A stretch of 23,498 nucleotides of DNA from the IMG/VR virus record IMGVR_UViG_2537561944_000018; one strand, 5' to 3'. Below, in pieces: positions 199 through 23,498 of this stretch. The number at the start of each line of letters is the position of its first letter. Within the stretch, counting starts at the first letter, position 1. A program made the position numbers and the translations under genes. The stretch comes from a virus. Lineage: Duplodnaviria; Heunggongvirae; Uroviricota; Caudoviricetes. Below the pieces are notes generated by a model. It ran no database searches, was not told the origin of the DNA, and saw only the letters and a program-made list of their open reading frames with translations.

Positions 199-2136
199 TC
201 ATGCCGCAGTGTCTGTGCTGTTCACTTCCACCGCAATGCTGTCTATCAGTACCGGGTAAGTCGCATTCCTGGTAATGTCTGTCACATGCAGTTTATCCGC
301 CGCAAATGCACTGACCGGTGACTGCGTCAGCGTGAACGGTGTGCCATCCTGACCATCAATAACCGGCGTCACCTGAAGGCTGTTATTCCCGGCAAAGCGG
401 AAAGCCAGCGTATGCCATTCGTTATCAAATGCGCCAAAGGTTCCCAGTTTCAGGTTGTTTGTCGCCACTTTCGCATTGTGGTACATCACATTCAGGTCTT
501 TTGCATCTGTCTGGATGTAGGACGCTGCCAGCAGGTTATTCCCCCCGTCTCCGGTCAGGGCAACGCCCTGTGGCAGTGAAGAGACCGGCCAGTAAAACGC
601 CATAACATACTGGTTCGCAGCCAGCGCTCCCGAAACCTTAAAGCGGCAGCGAATCTGCCCCCCTTTCTGTAACAGAGCCGCACCGTTGCCCGCGGCGTAC
701 TCCAGCACCCAGCTGCTTTTACCGGCTTCCTTGGTCAGCTTCACTGCCTTACCTCCGGTTCCCTCCGCATCGCTGACCACTTCTGCCCTGCCGCCACTGG
801 CTGACCATCCCTGTACTTTCAGGCTTCCCTCTGACTCGCTGGCAAGGTAAGAGAGCAGTGTTGTGACGCCTGTGGCTTCTGCACCGGAAGGCGATGAAGG
901 GCGCACCTCTGATACTGTCGATGATGCCCCCGCGTTTAGCGCCACTCTTCCCGCATGGCGCAAAATCGCCGTTGCCAGACGGTCGGAAATAATCCCACGG
1001 CGTGCCCAGGCGCTGAAATGGCTCGCCCTGTCCTGTGACGTCCAGGTGGCTGAGCTGTCACGCCATTTCGAACCGTAATATCCGATACCCGGAATGTCCG
1101 GGTCTTCTTCCGGTTTGTTCGTCGGCACATTCACCCCGTTCTCATCGGTCATGAACGGTACGAAATGGATATTCTTTTCCGTTTTGTTTTTATAGCTGCC
1201 GTACACCGTCTGGTACGTGGATTCGTTCTTCTGCTTCCAGAAATACGTCGTATCTCCACATATCCAGGGAACACCGCCAGCAGAGCCACCGACGCACTGA
1301 CCTGCCATATCCGCCAGGTCTGCACGGAATTTATCAACCAGCGCACCAAACTGTGCTGCGTGATTTGCCGGCGTACCGCCAAAATCAAATTCCCCCTGCA
1401 TCCACACCACGGCAAACAGCACATTTTTCGGATTCTTCTTCAGTGCTGCTTTTGTTCGACCGATAAGGTCCTTATACAGCGGCTTGTCCACACCCCAGCG
1501 GGTTGAATTCTCCGAGGCACCACTCGCGTCACTGTATGTGCCATCGGCTCCGGTGGTGAACGCTGAACCACCACGACAGCACGGAACCAGCAGAATGCCC
1601 GCATTCGCCGGTATAAACGGCAGCAATTTTTTGGCGATATGCAGCCCTTGCCCCACGGTTCCGTACTGCCCCTTTGACAGGTCCGCTTTCGGATGGTTAA
1701 GGCGGCTCATGTCCTGCACATCATGCAGACAATGGTCCGCCGGAATGATGTCGTTATATTTACAGGCGACACCGCCCGGTGTCACCGTACTGCGACGCGC
1801 CAGCTGCTTAATGCGCGGGTCCGGACGGTCATATGTCTCCGGCAGCGGAAGGCCTTCACCATATGCCATGCTGTTTGACTGCCCCGCCAGAACCACAACA
1901 AAGTAATACTCCGGGTCTCTGGTGGCGCTGATTACTGTGCCTTCTCCATCCGACGGCTTCACCAACACAGGTGTGGTGACATCACCTTCCGCCGCAATGG
2001 CCTGCATCAGAGTATAAGGCGTGATGGCCACCGGGCTGCCAAATGGCTGCCACCCCTCCTTCAGTTTTTGTGTCAGCTTTTCCGCAAGGTCTGACGGCGA
2101 CGCCGCCCTGACAACATCATAATGTTTAATCGACAT
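199..2136 (-). CDS. NanS-p-type prophage sialate O-acetylesterase (SGNH/SASA hydrolase domain), 645 aa
   Basis: 645-aa ORF with a GQSN-type SGNH motif (VVLAGQSNSMAYGEG); ATG at 2136 preceded by GGGAGAA; size and position match prophage NanS-p proteins as recalled. Confidence 0.8.
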   Translation of the reverse strand: MSIKHYDVVRAASPSDLAEKLTQKLKEGWQPFGSPVAITPYTLMQAIAAEGDVTTPVLVKPSDGEGTVISATRDPEYYFVVVLAGQSNSMAYGEGLPLPETYDRPDPRIKQLARRSTVTPGGVACKYNDIIPADHCLHDVQDMSRLNHPKADLSKGQYGTVGQGLHIAKKLLPFIPANAGILLVPCCRGGSAFTTGADGTYSDASGASENSTRWGVDKPLYKDLIGRTKAALKKNPKNVLFAVVWMQGEFDFGGTPANHAAQFGALVDKFRADLADMAGQCVGGSAGGVPWICGDTTYFWKQKNESTYQTVYGSYKNKTEKNIHFVPFMTDENGVNVPTNKPEEDPDIPGIGYYGSKWRDSSATWTSQDRASHFSAWARRGIISDRLATAILRHAGRVALNAGASSTVSEVRPSSPSGAEATGVTTLLSYLASESEGSLKVQGWSASGGRAEVVSDAEGTGGKAVKLTKEAGKSSWVLEYAAGNGAALLQKGGQIRCRFKVSGALAANQYVMAFYWPVSSLPQGVALTGDGGNNLLAASYIQTDAKDLNVMYHNAKVATNNLKLGTFGAFDNEWHTLAFRFAGNNSLQVTPVIDGQDGTPFTLTQSPVSAFAADKLHVTDITRNATYPVLIDSIAVEVNSTDTAA

Positions 2137-3045: not shown

Positions 3046-3177
3046 CGTGACGTTCCTTTGGGTGGGTGAGCCAACGCCCGGGAGCGATCTGCCCACAGAG
3101 AAAGTCACACTGACCACTCCGTAAGCTCACCCCCGAAAGGCTCTGTGGTTGATATGCGCCGGGCGTGGCGCAGATAC

Positions 3178-3201
3178 AAAAAAGGCCCGCCGAAGCGAGC
3201 C
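3178..3201 (-). terminator. Rho-independent terminator after the tRNA cluster
   Basis: Minus-strand RNA GGCUCGC-UUCG-GCGGGCC (7-bp stem, one G-U) followed by U6; 13 nt downstream of the tRNA-Arg(UCU) CCA end. Confidence 0.7.
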
Positions 3202-3214
3202 TGGAAAATAAGTG

Positions 3215-3291
3215 TGGCGCGTTGTAGTGGAGTCGAACCACTGACCGATTGCTTAGAAGGCAATTGCTCTGTCCGACTGAGCTAACAACGC
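3215..3291 (-). tRNA. tRNA-Arg (anticodon UCU), CCA encoded
   Basis: 77-nt cloverleaf: acceptor GCGTTGT/ACAACGC, D-arm GCTC..GAGC, anticodon stem ATTGC/GCAAT with loop CTTCTAA, T-arm AGTGG-TTCGACT-CCACT. Confidence 0.9.
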
Positions 3292-3304
3292 ATGATGCTG
3301 ATAA

Positions 3305-3381
3305 TGGACCGCCATCGGGGACTTGAACCCCGCGCAGCCAGCTTCGAAGGCTGGCGCTCTGTCCCGATGAGCTAATGGCGG
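3305..3381 (-). tRNA. tRNA-Arg (anticodon UCG), CCA encoded
   Basis: 77-nt cloverleaf: anticodon stem CCAGC/GCTGG with loop CTTCGAA, T-loop TTCAAGT; acceptor pairs CCGCCAT with ATGGCGG (C1-G72). Confidence 0.8.
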
Positions 3382-3390
3382 TATGTGATA

Positions 3391-3466
3391 TGGTGGCCCT
3401 TGCTGGATTTGAACCAGCGACCTGGCGATTATGAGTCGCTCGCTCTCACCACTGAGCTAAAGGGCC
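3391..3466 (-). tRNA. tRNA-Ile2-like (anticodon CAU; Met not excluded), CCA encoded
   Basis: 76-nt cloverleaf GGCCCTT...AAGGGCC with anticodon loop CTCATAA; closely resembles E. coli ileX as recalled; first of a three-tRNA cluster as in Stx-type phages. Confidence 0.85.
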
Positions 3467-3494
3467 GAGCCAAAAAATAATAATCAGATGAAAA

Positions 3495-4208
3495 TCAATA
3501 ATCAAGCCCTTGCCTGGATACATATCTGTCTGGCGGGAAGCCATAATAGCGGTGAAATACAGAAATAAAGTAGGACCTGCTTGAATAACCGCATTTTTCT
3601 GCTATAGCCTGTCCATATCCATGCCGGGAACATAACATATTTACAGCAACACGCATCCGCTCTTCCAGCAACAAGCGACTGAACATGCCCCCTTCATTTT
3701 TCAGTTTTGTCTTTAACAAACTCTCACTCATATGCAACTGTAGAGCAATCGCACCAAGCGTCCAGCTTGCTGATATATCTGTCTGAATTATCGCCCTGAC
3801 TTTGGCACTTATGCTGGATAAACATCCACTTAAAAACAATGACATCCGTTCATCTGTTTCAAACAGAGACAGGCAGGCCATCATAAGAAACATATCCGTG
3901 GCCTCTCCGGAAAATCCCTGGCTGGTAATTAAAGCCGCAGCCAACGCAGGATTGTTGGGTTCCAGCAACAGGTAAAGCGGAATGTCAGTCAGACGAGTCC
4001 TCGTCAGCTTATGCTGACTTTCCAGATATTGACTTACGACGGATTCGCTTATATCGACAATTTTAACTTTGCCATAATGCATAAGGAAAAGCTCCCTGAT
4101 GCATTTGGTGGCCAGAACGACTGAGCCTGGCTTAAGTGACAACGTATCCTTTTCAAGAAAAATATTAATTGGGGAGCAAACCATGATAACTGAACAGACA
4201 ACAGCCAT
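3495..4208 (-). CDS. AraC-family transcriptional regulator, AppY/GadX-like, 237 aa
   Basis: C-terminal AraC-type HTH (AIAEKCGYSSRSYFISVFHRYYGFPPDRY); N-terminus MAVVCSV resembles AppY as recalled; ATG at 4208. Confidence 0.8.
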   Translation of the reverse strand: MAVVCSVIMVCSPINIFLEKDTLSLKPGSVVLATKCIRELFLMHYGKVKIVDISESVVSQYLESQHKLTRTRLTDIPLYLLLEPNNPALAAALITSQGFSGEATDMFLMMACLSLFETDERMSLFLSGCLSSISAKVRAIIQTDISASWTLGAIALQLHMSESLLKTKLKNEGGMFSRLLLEERMRVAVNMLCSRHGYGQAIAEKCGYSSRSYFISVFHRYYGFPPDRYVSRQGLDY

Positions 4209-4330
4209 TATAATTTTACTTTCATTAGCAATTGGTTAGCTCAATTATAGCCCCAAAAGGTAAATTATCATCAACACATAAGCAAAGGACTGACAGGTGT
4301 CGCCCCCCCACCAGCCGCCCATTCACCACA

Positions 4331-4356
4331 AATAAAAAGCCTTCAGGACTGAAGGC
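4331..4356 (-). terminator. Rho-independent terminator overlapping the stop of the 65-aa gene
   Basis: Minus RNA GCCUUCAG-UC-CUGAAGGC followed by UUUUUAUUU; the stop codon at 4343-4345 lies within the stem. Confidence 0.5.
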
Positions 4357-4540
4357 GTCTGTAACAACCGCACTGATAGTCTGCCAGACCCGCCATAACA
4401 AGCTGGGTCAGTATTAACTGGCAGCGTTCGCGTGAAAGGTAAGTATTCTGCGCAACCTCCCCGACTGTCGCCGGTTCGGTAACGCTTAATTCATTAAACA
4501 CCACTCTGGCGGTTTCGGTCATATCCTGCTGTTTCAGCAT
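4343..4540 (-). CDS. Hypothetical small protein (65 aa), possibly winged-helix (PapI/FaeA-like)
   Basis: Internal ATG at 4540 with AGGGA 9 nt upstream; MLKQQDMTETARVVFNELSVTEPATVGEVAQ...; family guess is weak. The longer track ORF starts at GTG 4663 inside the tR'-like A-run. Confidence 0.4.
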   Translation of the reverse strand: MLKQQDMTETARVVFNELSVTEPATVGEVAQNTYLSRERCQLILTQLVMAGLADYQCGCYRRLQS

Positions 4541-4663
4541 GTCTTTTTCCCTTTTTCGGTTAACGTGACACACCAATAACTCTTGTCGAAAAAGCCAGCA
4601 AGCTGAAAGAACGGTATTAATAACCACCAGCGAATTTATTGCGCTGCTGTATATTACGGACAC

Positions 4664-4685
4664 AAAAAAACCACCTTCCGGTGGC
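4664..4685 (-). terminator. tR'-like terminator downstream of the Q-like gene
   Basis: Minus RNA CCACC-GGAA-GGUGG followed by U7 (plus A7 at 4664-4670), about 100 nt downstream of the Q-like stop. Confidence 0.6.
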
Positions 4686-4781
4686 TTCCTTGTGCGAAAA
4701 AACTTGCATTTCGCCTCGCGATACAGCTTTGCGAAGCTTACAGGAATTCAAGCTGTTTCTGCGTAAAAAAGCAAGCTTTTT

Positions 4782-5324
4782 TTATCGAAATGAATCGTGC
4801 ATAGGTACATAAAGCATGTGTTCAGCCACGGCTAACCAACCTGCAATACGTTTCTCACATGTGCTGAAACACCATTCCGGGTGAGTACGATTTAAACATT
4901 CTGCCATTTTTCTCTTACTCATTCCCCGTCCTTCGTACCTTTGCCGGAGAATATTGATTAGCCCGGGATATTCCCCAAGCACCTCACTGATAACGCGATC
5001 AATAATCAACGCCTCTGTGTCTGTACAATGTGACAACCAGCTCTTCTGCTTCCCTCTGGTCATATCCCGAAAAAATGCCTCAAGTTCCGGTTTTTCCAGC
5101 CCGGATTTCTTCATGCTGCGTAAAACCTCATTAACTGCTGTTTTCGTCAGCTTTTTCGAAACCAGTAACCGGTTAAACATATTTCCGGATTTACCCCCAC
5201 CGATATACGACCACCGCCCCCACATCCGTAATTTCCCCTGGATCCAGACTGCTTCCAGCGTGTTCAGGCGTAAATGTTCGCCGCTTTTGCCTGTAATTTC
5301 CGGATATATCATATTTACGCTCAC
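4782..5324 (-). CDS. Q-like late antiterminator candidate, 180 aa
   Basis: GTG start at 5324 overlaps the rusA TGA (GTGA); WGRW motif recalls the QuuD-type WGAW; sits between rusA and a tR'-like terminator. Confidence 0.5.
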   Translation of the reverse strand: MSVNMIYPEITGKSGEHLRLNTLEAVWIQGKLRMWGRWSYIGGGKSGNMFNRLLVSKKLTKTAVNEVLRSMKKSGLEKPELEAFFRDMTRGKQKSWLSHCTDTEALIIDRVISEVLGEYPGLINILRQRYEGRGMSKRKMAECLNRTHPEWCFSTCEKRIAGWLAVAEHMLYVPMHDSFR

Positions 5325-5680
5325 TCACTCTCAATTTTGTAAATCTTCACACCCAGCCGTCCACCAGATACTGGCTGACCGCGCACAATATTGATTTCAT
5401 CAAACTGCTCGTCATCAATGAGCACTTCCGCATGCGTCAGCGCATCCAGCGGTGCTTTCAGAATGTTGTCCAGGTCACGGCGGCGCTTATCCGGTGGCTC
5501 TGCAATCACCTTTATCGCCAGCCTTCCGGACAGGCTTAATTTCAGCCGCTGCTGGCGAACAATAAGCGCCACAGCCCGGCGATAACGCTTTCCCTCCTCC
5601 GAGATAAAATATGTGCTGCCACGGCGTCGCCAGTAAGTGTTCACCGTCGGCGGGTAAGGTAAAACCAAATCTATGAGCAT
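5321..5680 (-). CDS. rusA: Crossover junction endodeoxyribonuclease RusA, 119 aa
   Basis: PYPPTVNTYWRRRG ... RRRDLDN ... GGRL motifs typical of RusA; ATG at 5680 with AGAGGTGA upstream. Confidence 0.9.
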   Translation of the reverse strand: MLIDLVLPYPPTVNTYWRRRGSTYFISEEGKRYRRAVALIVRQQRLKLSLSGRLAIKVIAEPPDKRRRDLDNILKAPLDALTHAEVLIDDEQFDEINIVRGQPVSGGRLGVKIYKIESE

Positions 5681-5692
5681 CAGTCACCTCTT

Positions 5693-6739
5693 TTACCCAA
5701 GCACGCCAGTTGCAAAGGCGTGATCAAGAAAACGAAAAATTAAATCAACCTGAGAACCATGCTTTTCTTCGAACGCCAGCGGATCCGCATGAAGCTCGTT
5801 GTGATGCTCCCGACACAGCGGTAGCGTGAAAATATCGTGAGATTTTGTCCCCATTCCCCCCTGACCATGACCAATCAGGTGATGCGGATCGTCAGCAGGC
5901 TTACCACAACACGCACACGGCTGTGTCTTCACCCAGTGCGTGTATTTCTCGTTAACCCAGCGGCGACGTTTAGGTCGTTTCATGAAAGATTCCGGAGACT
6001 CAGGATCAACGGCAATGCTGACCACCGTCTTTTCCTGTGGCGGTTTTTGCTGGTGAGCGTGAGGCAGCGGCGCAAGATTTTTTGTGCGCTGCTTCAGTAT
6101 GCTGGTGGCGGTCTGCTCTCCCGGTACGATGTCGCTTTCACGGTACATTGAGCGGATTTTTTCCGCACGCAACCCCAGCGAACGACGTAATACCGCTTCC
6201 GGTAGCGCGTCCGCCACCTGATTGCGGACCGCCCACCAGGATAATTCAGCCAGAGATAATTCCCGTTCCTGTGCACCACTTATTGCGTGACGTATGACGT
6301 CAATCATCCAGGCTGTCAGATTTTGTTGAGCAAGCTGCCCGAGTGATTCGGATGTCTGGTCGCGCAGCTGGTTGTCGCAGTGCCAGCACAACACCATTGC
6401 GCCGGTACCATAACGGTGAATGACGGTTTCGCTGTGATGATAATCGCCGTGTGGCCACTGGCAGGATTTAATATGGCGCAACAGCCAGTCAGACAATGCA
6501 CCAGCACCACCAGCAGCACGAATCACCCGTGCGTTACTGAAAAACGGCAGCAATGTTTTGTCTTCCACTAGCGGCTGGCGAACGGCAGGAACAACCCCGG
6601 ACGGCAGATTACGCATGCTTTTCGGTTCCGGCTCCACCAGTACCCGGGTATTGTGGAATACCGGCATGGATTCACGACCCGGCTTAACGATCACCAGCCC
6701 GAGTTCCGGTACCAGAACAGGTCGAAGTAATACCCGCAC
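5693..6739 (-). CDS. DUF968 (YdfU-like) protein with C-terminal HNH-like Cys/His motif, 348 aa
   Basis: GTG start at 6739 one nt after the upstream TAA and preceded by GGAGG; C-terminal CACCGKPADDPHHLIGH...CREHHNELH. Confidence 0.8.
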   Translation of the reverse strand: MRVLLRPVLVPELGLVIVKPGRESMPVFHNTRVLVEPEPKSMRNLPSGVVPAVRQPLVEDKTLLPFFSNARVIRAAGGAGALSDWLLRHIKSCQWPHGDYHHSETVIHRYGTGAMVLCWHCDNQLRDQTSESLGQLAQQNLTAWMIDVIRHAISGAQERELSLAELSWWAVRNQVADALPEAVLRRSLGLRAEKIRSMYRESDIVPGEQTATSILKQRTKNLAPLPHAHQQKPPQEKTVVSIAVDPESPESFMKRPKRRRWVNEKYTHWVKTQPCACCGKPADDPHHLIGHGQGGMGTKSHDIFTLPLCREHHNELHADPLAFEEKHGSQVDLIFRFLDHAFATGVLG

Positions 6740-6740
6740 G

Positions 6741-7013
6741 TTACCTCCAGATGCGTTGCTGGAATGTGCGGGACGGACGCGGCGGGCGTTCGGAATAAAG
6801 GAGCCTGACGTAGATTATCCAGTGACGGTAGTCGAGGCTAAGGGCTTTCTTAAACTCATACCCACGTCTGCGGTAGTTATGAATCAGCCATTCGGCCTGT
6901 TCTTCAGTGCAGGGATCGTGCTGATACCAGTCATATTTGAATGTGTGAGAACACCGCCCTTGCCTGCTGGCAGGGGCGATATCAGAATTGTGATGTTTGG
7001 TATTGTGCGCCAT
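6741..7013 (-). CDS. Hypothetical protein (about 90 aa from ATG 7013)
   Basis: Stop TAA 6743-6741 abuts the DUF968 GTG, and the DUF968 SD lies in its 3' end; own start signals are weak. Confidence 0.45.
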   Translation of the reverse strand: MAHNTKHHNSDIAPASRQGRCSHTFKYDWYQHDPCTEEQAEWLIHNYRRRGYEFKKALSLDYRHWIIYVRLLYSERPPRPSRTFQQRIWR

Positions 7014-7085
7014 CGGTTTTCTCTGCTGGCGCAGCAGGTGCCAGTTGTTCAAGCTGGCGTGCGGCAATATTGTCTCTGATTTCTG

Positions 7086-7113
7086 TTGTCGTCAACAGGC
7101 AACGTGCTATCAT
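7086..7113 (+). promoter_or_regulatory. Candidate sigma70 promoter for the parDE-like operon
   Basis: TTGTCG (7086-7091), 16-bp spacer, TATCAT (7108-7113); SD GTGAGG at 7137-7142 precedes the ATG. Confidence 0.35.
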
Positions 7114-7148
7114 CGAATGGTGTTCTATCCTACTCCGTGAGGTTTACC

Positions 7149-7406
7149 ATGCGTACAACCCAACAATTCAGCATTACATTAACTAACGAAATGGCTGACA
7201 TGGTGCGCGCCCGTGTGGCTTCCGGTGCCTATGCTTCAGAAAGCGAGGTCATTCGTGAAGGGCTTCGCGCACTGAATGAGCGCGATAAAGCAATCGAAGC
7301 GTGGTTAACGCATTCAGCCGCCCCCTCTCTTGATTCTATCCGCGAAAATCCAAACAACGGACGCTCCATTTCACAGGTTCGCGCCGCGATTCGATCCGGG
7401 AAGTAA
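7149..7406 (+). CDS. parD: ParD/CopG-type RHH antitoxin, 85 aa
   Basis: ATG at 7149 with GTGAGG 6 nt upstream; ...ASESEVIREGLRALNERDKAIEAWL typical of ParD-like antitoxins. Confidence 0.75.
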   Translation: MRTTQQFSITLTNEMADMVRARVASGAYASESEVIREGLRALNERDKAIEAWLTHSAAPSLDSIRENPNNGRSISQVRAAIRSGK

Positions 7407-7411
7407 TCTGC

Positions 7412-7711
7412 ATGACATATGAAGTCATCATTACTCCTGAGGCCGAACAACAAATAATCAACCTGCACAGGTATATAACGGAGAAAGCAGGGAACGTCAT
7501 TGCTGACAATTATGCCAATGCGCTTCTTGATTATCTTGATGGGTTTTCTACATTCCCGCATCGGGGCAATAAACGCGATGATATTCGCCAGGGGATGCGG
7601 GTAACTCATTTCCGCCACAGAACGATTATTGCTTTTGCCGTTGATAGCAGAAAAGTCTTTATTGTCGGTATCTATCATGGTGGGCAAAGTTATGAAACCG
7701 ATTTCTTATAA
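7412..7711 (+). CDS. parE: ParE/RelE-superfamily toxin, 99 aa
   Basis: Starts 5 nt after the antitoxin stop; RelE/ParE fold signature (...RQGMRVTHFRHRTIIAFAVDSRKVFIVGIYHGGQSYE). Confidence 0.8.
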   Translation: MTYEVIITPEAEQQIINLHRYITEKAGNVIADNYANALLDYLDGFSTFPHRGNKRDDIRQGMRVTHFRHRTIIAFAVDSRKVFIVGIYHGGQSYETDFL

Positions 7712-10209: not shown

Positions 10210-10566
10210 TTATTCAGTTCTGGATTTTGTCGCCCTGCGTATCCGCGCTTTCGCGTTACGTTCAATCTGAATTAACTTTTCTATATTTTTCCGCCTTTCC
10301 TGTTCCTCCTGGCGCAATAGCCTTACATCATCTGCCAGTCTGGTTTCTCTTTTCGCCACAGAGAGCATCCAGTCAAACGGCTCCACAACCGCACCGCAGA
10401 TTTTACAGCGGACCTGGCGCTCTTTTTCGTCAACCCGAACAGAGGCGTGATGACAATATGGTCTTTCCGATGGCTCATAAAGAAAATTAACCTGATTACG
10501 AGGGTCATCCTCTTTTACCGGAAATAAAACGATATTGCTTAACTCATCCTCTGGTTTTATTTCCAT
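10210..10566 (-). CDS. Hypothetical protein with Cys/His zinc-binding motif, 118 aa
   Basis: ATG at 10566 preceded by AAGGAGAGGAG; CHHASVRV...CKICG motif; start overlaps the upstream Ea22-like 3' end. Confidence 0.6.
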   Translation of the reverse strand: MEIKPEDELSNIVLFPVKEDDPRNQVNFLYEPSERPYCHHASVRVDEKERQVRCKICGAVVEPFDWMLSVAKRETRLADDVRLLRQEEQERRKNIEKLIQIERNAKARIRRATKSRTE

Positions 10567-18468: not shown

Positions 18469-18526
18469 TTTCTGGTGACGTTTGGCGGTATCAGTTTTAC
18501 TCCGTGGCTGCTCTGCCGCCCTTTTT
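18469..18526 (+). ncRNA. dicF: DicF small regulatory RNA with its U-tail terminator
   Basis: TTTCTGGTGACGTTTGGCGGTATCAGTTTTACTCCGTGGCTGCTCTGCCGCCC followed by T5; matches the DicF sequence as recalled, with one apparent A-to-G difference; lies just upstream of the dicB homologue. Confidence 0.8.
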
Positions 18527-22316: not shown

Positions 22317-23207
22317 TCAGGCTGCCAGATCATTATTTCCGATGGAAGCATAATAAGCTTTTTCTGCTTCTGCCGGAGGAATATGGCCCAGCCTTTCCAG
22401 CAATCGTCGATTGTTATACCAGTCCACCCACGTTAGTGTGGCCAGTTCCACTTCTGTCCGGTTTTTCCAGCTATTACGGTGTATTACCTCCGCTTTGTAA
22501 AGACCATTGATGCTCTCAGCCATCGCGTTGTCATACGAGTCGCCAGTACTCCCTGTTGATGCCAGTAATCCGGCTTCCTTAAGCCGCTGCGTGTAGGCCA
22601 GCGATACATACTGAGAACCTTTATCACTGTGATGGATTGTGCCGGACGGCCGACGGGCCCACAACGCCTGCTCCAGTGCATCCAGCACGAATGTTGTTTC
22701 CATGGATGATGAGACCTGCCATCCCACGATGTATCCGGCGAACACATCAATGATAAACGCCACATAAACGAAGCCCTGCCATGTGCTGACCCAAGTAAAA
22801 TCAGCCACCCACAACTGGTCTGGACGTTCTGCCACGAACTGACGGTTTACGCGGTCGCATGCGGCAACGGCTTTCCGGCTGACGGTAGTGCGGACCTTTT
22901 TACCCCGGAGAACACCGGCAAGCCCCATAACTGCCATGAGACGTGCCACAGTGCATCTGGCCACTCTGATACCTTCCCGTAACAACTGACGCCAGACTTT
23001 ACGCACACCGTATACCTGGTGATTTTCATCGTATACGCGCTGTATCTCTTTCTTCAGCCAGTCATCGTGCTGCGCACGGGCACTGCGTTTATCCGGATGA
23101 TGTCGCTGTTGCTGACAATGGTAATACGTTGACGGGGCAATATGCAGTTCGCTGCATACCGGTCCGACCCCGTACTGCTCACGCAGCTTATCCAGCAGTG
23201 GCATCAT
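22317..23207 (-). CDS. IS629-like transposase OrfB (DDE), about 296 aa from MMPLL
   Basis: DDE/rve motifs (...HHSDKGSQY...YDNAMAES...); the frame stays open upstream to 23297, overlapping orfA for frameshift fusion. Confidence 0.75.
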
Positions 23208-23498
23208 TTTTCCAGAGGCGGTCGAACTCCGCCTTCGCAAAATAAGCGGAAGCCTGGCGAAGGATATCGTTACTGCGGCGCAGTTCACGATTTTCACGTT
23301 CCAGCTCTTTCAGACGCTGACGTTCAGCACTGGTGAGCCCACCATCACCGCCCCCGGTATCCCGCTCATGCTGGCGAACCCAGACACGCAGAGTCTCCGG
23401 CGTACAGCCAATCTTTGGGGCAATGGAACAAATTGCCGCCCACTGTGAGTCATATTCATCCTGACTTTCCAGAACCATACGAATCGCCCGCTGACGGA
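23188..23498 (-). CDS. IS629-like transposase OrfA, 5'-partial (start lies beyond the window)
   Basis: ...[39 protein letters not shown]...[26 protein letters not shown]; HTH and leucine-zipper region of IS3-family OrfA. Confidence 0.75.

Follow-up and report, generated by a model that had tools for sequence, protein, structure and literature searches.

The AraC-family regulator gene psrB lies behind a Q-like gene and two predicted terminators in a defective lambdoid prophage of LEE-type Escherichia coli

The window, by which we mean the whole stretch of 23,498 nucleotides that was analysed, contains prophage DNA whose 3100–5400 segment is 100% identical to prophage DNA of E. coli O26:H11 11368 and O103:H2 12009, and equally to that of many further bovine and human isolates. 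At least 80% of the whole window is present in about 119 complete genomes. On the minus strand the genes follow one another in the order DUF968, RusA, Q-like, a 65-codon gene (orf65), an AraC-family gene, three tRNAs, TerB, DUF3927 and NanS-p esterase. In the O26 genome, the region beyond NanS-p continues with a holin gene, a lysozyme gene and a gene for a PerC/Pch-family regulator, then with head and tail genes. The late operon of a lambdoid prophage from LEE-type E. coli begins with this region; the prophage is defective, as its integrase and portal genes are frameshifted (O26 11368 copy). The relevant features are listed below.

199–2136, minus strand: TerB, DUF3927 and NanS-p esterase genes
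3183–3202, minus strand: predicted intrinsic terminator after the tRNA cluster (8-pair stem with 6 GC pairs, then TTTTTTG)
3215–3291, minus strand: tRNA-Arg(TCT) (ARAGORN, Rfam tRNA)
3305–3381, minus strand: tRNA-Arg(TCG) (ARAGORN, Rfam tRNA)
3391–3466, minus strand: tRNA-Ile2(CAT) (ARAGORN, Rfam tRNA)
3477–3505, minus strand: promoter-like site for the tRNA cluster (TTGATT-17-TATTAT), overlapping the 3' end of psrB
3495–4208, minus strand: psrB orthologue, AraC/XylS-family transcription factor of 237 aa
4244–4271, minus strand: promoter-like site of psrB (ATGATA-16-TATAAT, -10 box 4249–4244)
4331–4356, minus strand: second predicted intrinsic terminator (stem 4339–4356 plus T-run), overlapping the orf65 stop codon
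4343–4540, minus strand: orf65, small conserved gene for a possible winged-helix protein (WP_000917770.1 in RefSeq)
4660–4695, minus strand: tR'-like intrinsic terminator closing the Q module (core stem 4671–4684, then seven T)
4710–4758, minus strand: conserved non-coding block behind the Q gene, candidate late-promoter/Q-loading region
4782–5312, minus strand: Q-like late-gene antiterminator gene, DUF1133 family, 176 aa (RefSeq start; mechanical ORF start 5324)
5321–5680, minus strand: RusA gene
5693–6739, minus strand: DUF968 gene

The Q-like gene, the two terminators, the 65-codon ORF, the AraC-family gene and the tRNAs had all been listed by a sequence-only reading of this DNA, and each was recovered on the minus strand at, or a few bases away from, the position given there. 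By itself, the scan for consensus motifs did no better than chance: it gave 5 promoter-like sites where 4.3 were expected, and 8 terminator-like sites where 4.2 were expected. Support was therefore drawn from the z-scores of the folds and from what other phages conserve. Several other elements were noted in the window. Rfam matched the STnc100 sRNA (104.7 bits) at 2273–2445 on the minus strand, between the DUF3927 and NanS-p esterase genes and followed by a terminator at 2230–2248. It also matched the DicF antisense sRNA (75 bits) at 18470–18521 on the plus strand, near dicB in the prophage early region, and the ALIL pseudoknot (115.7 bits), a frameshift element of IS3-family insertion sequences, at 23133–23248 on the minus strand at the prophage end. 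A ParD/ParE-type toxin-antitoxin pair at 7086–7711 on the plus strand opposes the early-to-late transcription that leads to Q.

The regulator encoded at 3495–4208 matches the EDL933 O-island 57 protein WP_000301797.1 (PsrB) at 234 of 237 residues (98.7% identity). The EDL933 gene occupies positions 1,905,274–1,905,987 within O-island 57, where reviews also put psrB (z2104) (PMC8565820). The three substitutions (A103V, H196Y and I201V) all fall at family-variable positions. Sakai ECs1087, which is named psrA and lies in Sp4 (PMC13502914), is 90.7% identical to both the window regulator and EDL933 PsrB, in agreement with the published PsrA–PsrB identity of 90% (PMC10877973). Like PsrB (Z2104, OI-57/CP-933O) and PsrA (Sakai ECs1087, Sp4), the window protein is 237 aa long. 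The product had been described from the DNA letters as an AraC-family regulator of the Psr/PatE kind, and it turns out to be PsrB itself. Judged by protein identity, 3495–4208 is psrB, a known regulator of lysogenic conversion and a member of an already characterised gene family in its usual location. Genes of the psr type occur in about 830 of 5426 complete E. coli genomes.

The AraC helix-turn-helix that had been supposed in this protein was recognised by Pfam, with HTH_AraC at 50.3 bits (cut-off 26.6) and HTH_18 at 39.8 bits (cut-off 33.6). The best match to a solved structure was the GadX DNA-binding domain (3mkl, 7e-19, residues 134–233), and a fold search with a low-confidence model of the regulator (pLDDT 64) matched Rns, CsvR and ToxT over the full length. 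Full-length identities were 37% with the PatE candidate, 35% with GadW, 31% with YdeO and 29% with AppY; the 41% identity to GadX covers the DNA-binding domain only. The sequence-only reading had proposed AppY, GadX and Psr/PatE-type proteins for alignment. Psr was well chosen; the closest chromosomal paralogues are GadW and YdeO, ahead of AppY. The NCBIfam equivalog cut-offs for YdeO (score 108.5, cut-off 348) and GadX (87, cut-off 500) were not reached, so the regulator is a paralogue of these proteins and not an orthologue. GadW, GadX and YdeO, which are chromosomal, and AppY and PatE, which are prophage-borne, are AraC-family acid-resistance regulators with a Rns/ToxT-type two-domain architecture that the model also suggests for the psrB product. 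They share a target regulon (gadE, hdeA) with Psr (PMC10877973, PMC10057817).

The Psr proteins are prophage-encoded secretion regulators, and those of O157:H7 activate gadE, yhiF and hdeA, leading to an indirect repression of type III secretion (reviews: PMC10877973, PMC8565820). PsrB binds the hdeA and gadE promoters (reviews: PMC10877973, PMC8565820, PMC4456613). Reviews place psrA (z1789) in OI-50/CP-933N, from which the finished sequences of Sakai Sp6 and EDL933 CP-933N differ: no AraC gene lies between Q and TerB in CP-933N/Sp6 in the finished EDL933 and Sakai sequences, and psrA was found in Sakai Sp4. The CP-933N placement possibly goes back to the first EDL933 assembly. The Sakai segment at 1.805–1.830 Mb was examined as well and held nothing relevant.

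The gene upstream of this cassette, 4782–5312, had been called Q-like, and several lines of comparison bear this out. Its product belongs to Pfam DUF1133 (1e-110), also exceeds the cut-off of Phage_antitermQ (PF06530; 35.1 bits, cut-off 26), and is assigned to PHROG 753, "anti-termination protein Q-like" (3.5e-74). When a profile built from 27 DUF1133-family members was compared with the PDB, the Q protein of phage 21 (Q21) was the sole hit (2e-4). In a Foldseek search with an AF2 model whose pLDDT is only 66, the top 12 hits were all Q21 (probability 1.0, TM 0.55–0.68). RusA precedes the Q-like gene, and the late genes follow it. The isolated phage vB_EcoS-683R6 has a 76%-identical Q-like gene directly in front of the tRNAs and the lysis cassette, and in viable induced phages the DUF1133 family is found immediately ahead of the lysis cassette. 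By sequence profile, predicted fold and gene position, the protein is a distant relative of phage 21 Q; it matches PF06530 and its predicted fold matches that of Q21, but its identity to Q21 is only about 17%. A literature search on DUF1133 returned no papers.

Phage 21 has the succession PR', Q-binding element, pause element (SDPE) and tR', and the window Q gene is likewise followed by a conserved block and a terminator. No promoter, Q-binding element or pause element could be identified behind the window Q gene. The block itself, ...AAAC.GCTT.AAT..TA.GCTTCGCAAAGCTGTATCGCGAGGCGAA, spans about 48 nt downstream of the Q stop codon and is nearly invariant while its flanks vary (19 to 31 distinct DUF1133 modules compared); many EHEC genomes carry two to three copies of it. 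At 4710–4758, AAGCT occurs twice, 10 bp apart (AAGCTTCGCAAAGCTG), together with a -10-like TAnGCT. As a speculation, the AAGCT pair recalls the two directly repeated Q21 binding subsites. From the end of the Q gene to the first terminator, neither the scan nor a relaxed script run on 31 distinct Q modules detected a sigma-70 consensus promoter. The motifs TTGnnn-17-TT(C/G/T)AAT and TAnGCT are candidates only. A TTGGCT-18-TATATT motif within the Q coding region, the sole one to come up, was considered as the late promoter and not accepted, being found in 11 of the 31 modules and degenerate in the window. As no consensus promoter was found, a PR' behind the Q-like gene is inferred from conservation only.

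Just downstream of this block, the tR'-like hairpin folds far better than expected: the RNA of 4655–4700 reaches -23.9 kcal/mol (z = -5.8), a value that none of 200 shuffles equalled. T-run hairpins occupy the equivalent spot in other Q modules with different stems (GCCACC/GGTGG, CCCGCC/GCGGG, CCCGC/GCGGG); the stems vary compensatorily at a fixed position, and three other Q types also have a hairpin at the equivalent place. Beyond the T-run the similarity stops at once, and at least six unrelated modules follow. The presence of a terminator closing the Q module, proposed in the sequence-only reading, is thus backed by folding and by positional conservation across Q modules. The layout is that of a Q gene with a late promoter and a tR', the hairpin being a probable terminator.

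The hairpin at 4660–4695 could instead end a stand-alone prophage sRNA such as HnrS, and then would not be a late-operon tR'. HnrS, an sRNA of 66 nt that ends in a terminator, is encoded in multiple copies among the late genes of EHEC prophages and raises psrA and gadE expression (PMC13502914). A 66-nt RNA ending at the T-run of 4660–4695 would start 7 nt after a -10-like TAAGCT. Against this, HnrS is perfectly complementary to the end of mazF over 15 nt, while no stretch of the window complements the last 30 nt of mazF over more than 9 nt (10483–10491), and Rfam finds no RNA family in 3467–4800. HnrS was rejected as the RNA ending at 4660–4695 on account of this 9-nt maximum, and an sRNA terminator of any such kind at this position is hardly credible.

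Between the two terminators lies orf65. Among 22 distinct sequences its variable sites fall 4/7/20 on the first, second and third codon positions, with no internal stops, and this third-position bias marks it as a real coding gene that is, judging from the substitution pattern, under purifying selection. Its product has a weak match to the winged-helix family TrmB (0.003, below the cut-off) and belongs to PHROG 331 (function unknown). The DNA of orf65 stays more than 90% identical behind four or more Q types, Stx2 phages included, and many lambdoid and Stx phages have the gene in their late leader; among the comparison loci it was also seen in L007, L008, L014, L017–L021, L104 and L107. No promoter of its own was found for orf65. 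The second terminator, a 7-pair stem plus TTTTTATTTG, folds at -10.5 kcal/mol (z = -3.5) and is conserved in psr- and methylase-carrying phages alike.

On the other side of psrB, the tRNA cluster at 3215–3466 is of the ileZ-argN-argO type, and the same trio stands upstream of stx2 in Stx2 phages. The TTG and TATTAT of its promoter-like site persist in phages whose tRNAs follow an unrelated methylase gene, although the remaining sequence differs, and the cluster would appear to have its own promoter. The post-tRNA terminator is predicted at -14.6 kcal/mol (z = -3.65).

For psrB itself, a promoter of its own had been considered possible in 4209–4330, and the predicted site at 4271–4244 lies within that interval, with a -10 box conserved throughout the clade. 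This box ends 36 nt before the ATG. In the upstream regions of nine Psr homologues (59–99% identity), TATA(A/C)T is invariant at five of six positions (T, A, T, A,., T), including homologues with an unrelated upstream gene, and the TATAAT of a 64% relative and the TATACT of a 39% relative end 36 and 34 nt before the ATG. Sequences of psr- and methylase-carrying phages diverge just upstream of ATGATA-16-TATAAT. The -35 element is poor and not conserved. Measured as a moron, psrB has the conserved -10 box of a predicted promoter, the terminator at 4339–4356 and a composition unlike its flanks (GC 0.40–0.46 over the gene, 0.50–0.57 in the flanks).

The promoter bears on whether psrB could lack a working promoter altogether and be expressed, as stx2 largely is, solely by Q-dependent read-through from the late promoter. 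The location of the gene within the late operon on the same strand, the terminators between Q and psrB, and the Psr homologues found directly upstream of stx2 in some phages would all fit this view. It does not explain why the -10 box stands at a fixed distance from the ATG, also behind other upstream genes. Moreover, deletion of psrA changes type III secretion and psrA mRNA is altered in hnrS mutants, where it responds to HnrS, in both cases in uninduced cultures (PMC10877973, PMC13502914), which implies Q-independent expression. We consider an exclusive dependence on Q very improbable. Together, the conserved -10 box and the psrA phenotypes and RNA-seq changes in uninduced cultures favour an own promoter over Q antitermination as the route by which psrB is transcribed in the lysogen.

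Comparison with other prophages shows that the arrangement from Q to psr is not new but is the normal location of psrA and psrB. The psr prophages of EDL933 and Sakai share the window cassette (Q, orf65, psr, ileZ/arg tRNAs, TerB, NanS-p and lysis genes), and their psr upstream region, TATAAT box included, is nearly identical to that of the window. With respect to the EDL933 psrB prophage, the window differs in its Q, which is the allele of the other OI-57 prophage of EDL933, and in its host, a non-O157 LEE-type E. coli. More widely, Psr homologues of 91, 77, 64, 63, 59 and 39% identity are all encoded downstream of a Q gene, and all nine Psr homologue lineages examined occupy the same prophage region between Q and lysis. 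The Q genes ahead of psr belong to five families, among them DUF1133, PF06323, PF06530 and PF03589. The genes of PatE, AppY, GadW and YdeO lie elsewhere and not behind Q.

The same slot accepts other cargo. In Stx2 phages of the 933W/Sp5 type it is likewise bounded by Q, terminator, orf65 and terminator on one side and by ileZ-argN-argO on the other, with orf65, its terminator and the tRNAs more than 90% identical in DNA to the window, and in Stx2a phages a DNA methylase gene between orf65 and the tRNAs takes the place of psr. The EDL933 ompW prophage (locus L104, 20910–23361) encodes a Q-like protein identical to that of the window (WP_000640048.1), followed by orf65, a DNA methyltransferase gene and tRNAs, which indicates cargo swapping behind one Q module. 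In Stx2 phages the toxin genes follow the tRNAs, whereas the window has none and its cargo is a regulator of host genes with a conserved predicted promoter. Both kinds of gene meet in phiSTEC1575-Stx2k (6050–7041) and in locus L014 (4001–6329), as in several draft genomes, where the gene of a 91–92% Psr homologue is immediately followed by the tRNAs and stx2AB; there psr and stx2 would be on a shared late transcript. Transcription of this stretch in Stx phages starts at PR' and passes tR' through the action of Q (PMC7547250), in line with the general model of a constitutive PR', a tR' and Q-dependent read-through (PMC7547250; bioRxiv 10.1101/651190). Dependence on Q is proven for stx2; for psr, read-through by Q is expected from the layout.

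We propose, with a probability of roughly 70%, that psrB is a cargo moron with its own promoter in the lysogen, two shielding terminators and Q-dependent read-through on induction. This reading combines computed elements (gene identity, architecture, conservation of the slot and of the -10 box, terminator folding) with the targets of PsrA and PsrB and their expression in uninduced cultures, both known from the literature, and with a promoter activity, a terminator function and a Q read-through that we infer. In the lysogen, psrB would most likely be transcribed from its own sigma-70 promoter with a leader of about 28 nt, and the two serial terminators (the tR'-like one and that after orf65) would shield it from transcription begun downstream of the Q gene. 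Upon induction, RNA polymerase modified by Q would pass both terminators. The Q module, psrB and the lysis genes follow one another on one strand, so that such a polymerase would read into psrB and transcribe it together with the tRNAs and late genes, like stx2 in Stx phages. From this layout, Q read-through is expected to be an additional route of psrB expression. It had been suggested that the regulator would depend either on Q antitermination or on its own promoter; the preferred reading assigns the two routes to induction and lysogeny, respectively.

An alternative is that psrB is expressed from its own promoter only, the slot behind Q being a permissive cargo hot-spot and read-through having no biological role, either because the prophage is defective or because lysis comes first. 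The conserved -10 box and the two upstream terminators agree with this, as do the frameshifts in integrase and portal, the unrelated cargo (methylase, tRNAs, stx) in the same region, and the phenotypes and regulation of psrA in uninduced cultures (PMC10877973, PMC13502914). Indeed, given the frameshifts of the O26 11368 copy, the Q of this defective prophage may never be expressed. On the other hand, the Psr clade, down to 39% identity, stays just downstream of Q through five Q families while its more distant relatives PatE, AppY, GadW and YdeO sit elsewhere, and no sequence feature was seen that would halt a Q-modified polymerase. An expression restricted to the own promoter is a serious possibility, but we judge it unlikely.

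That Psr genes of 39% to 99% identity all keep this position, whichever of five Q families stands ahead of them, may reflect selection and not be incidental. Q made by the prophage itself, or provided in trans by a second resident prophage that shares the Q module, might boost psrB through both terminators. We advance this extension of the cargo-moron reading tentatively, and rather doubt it.

The comparative points added here, namely that the Psr clade sits in the cargo region between Q and lysis like stx2, that it has its own -10 box and that psr lies upstream of the toxin genes in some Stx2 phages, describe no new kind of system and make it easy to test whether induction raises Psr. They are useful for non-O157 strains (O26, O103 and similar), which harbour a near-identical psrB. 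Through Psr regulators, the prophages that an EHEC strain carries bear on its acid resistance and colonisation. If the position behind Q were indeed selected, SOS-triggered induction would switch GAD acid resistance on and type III secretion off in the induced subpopulation, which would make the defective prophage a regulatory switch that responds to Q.
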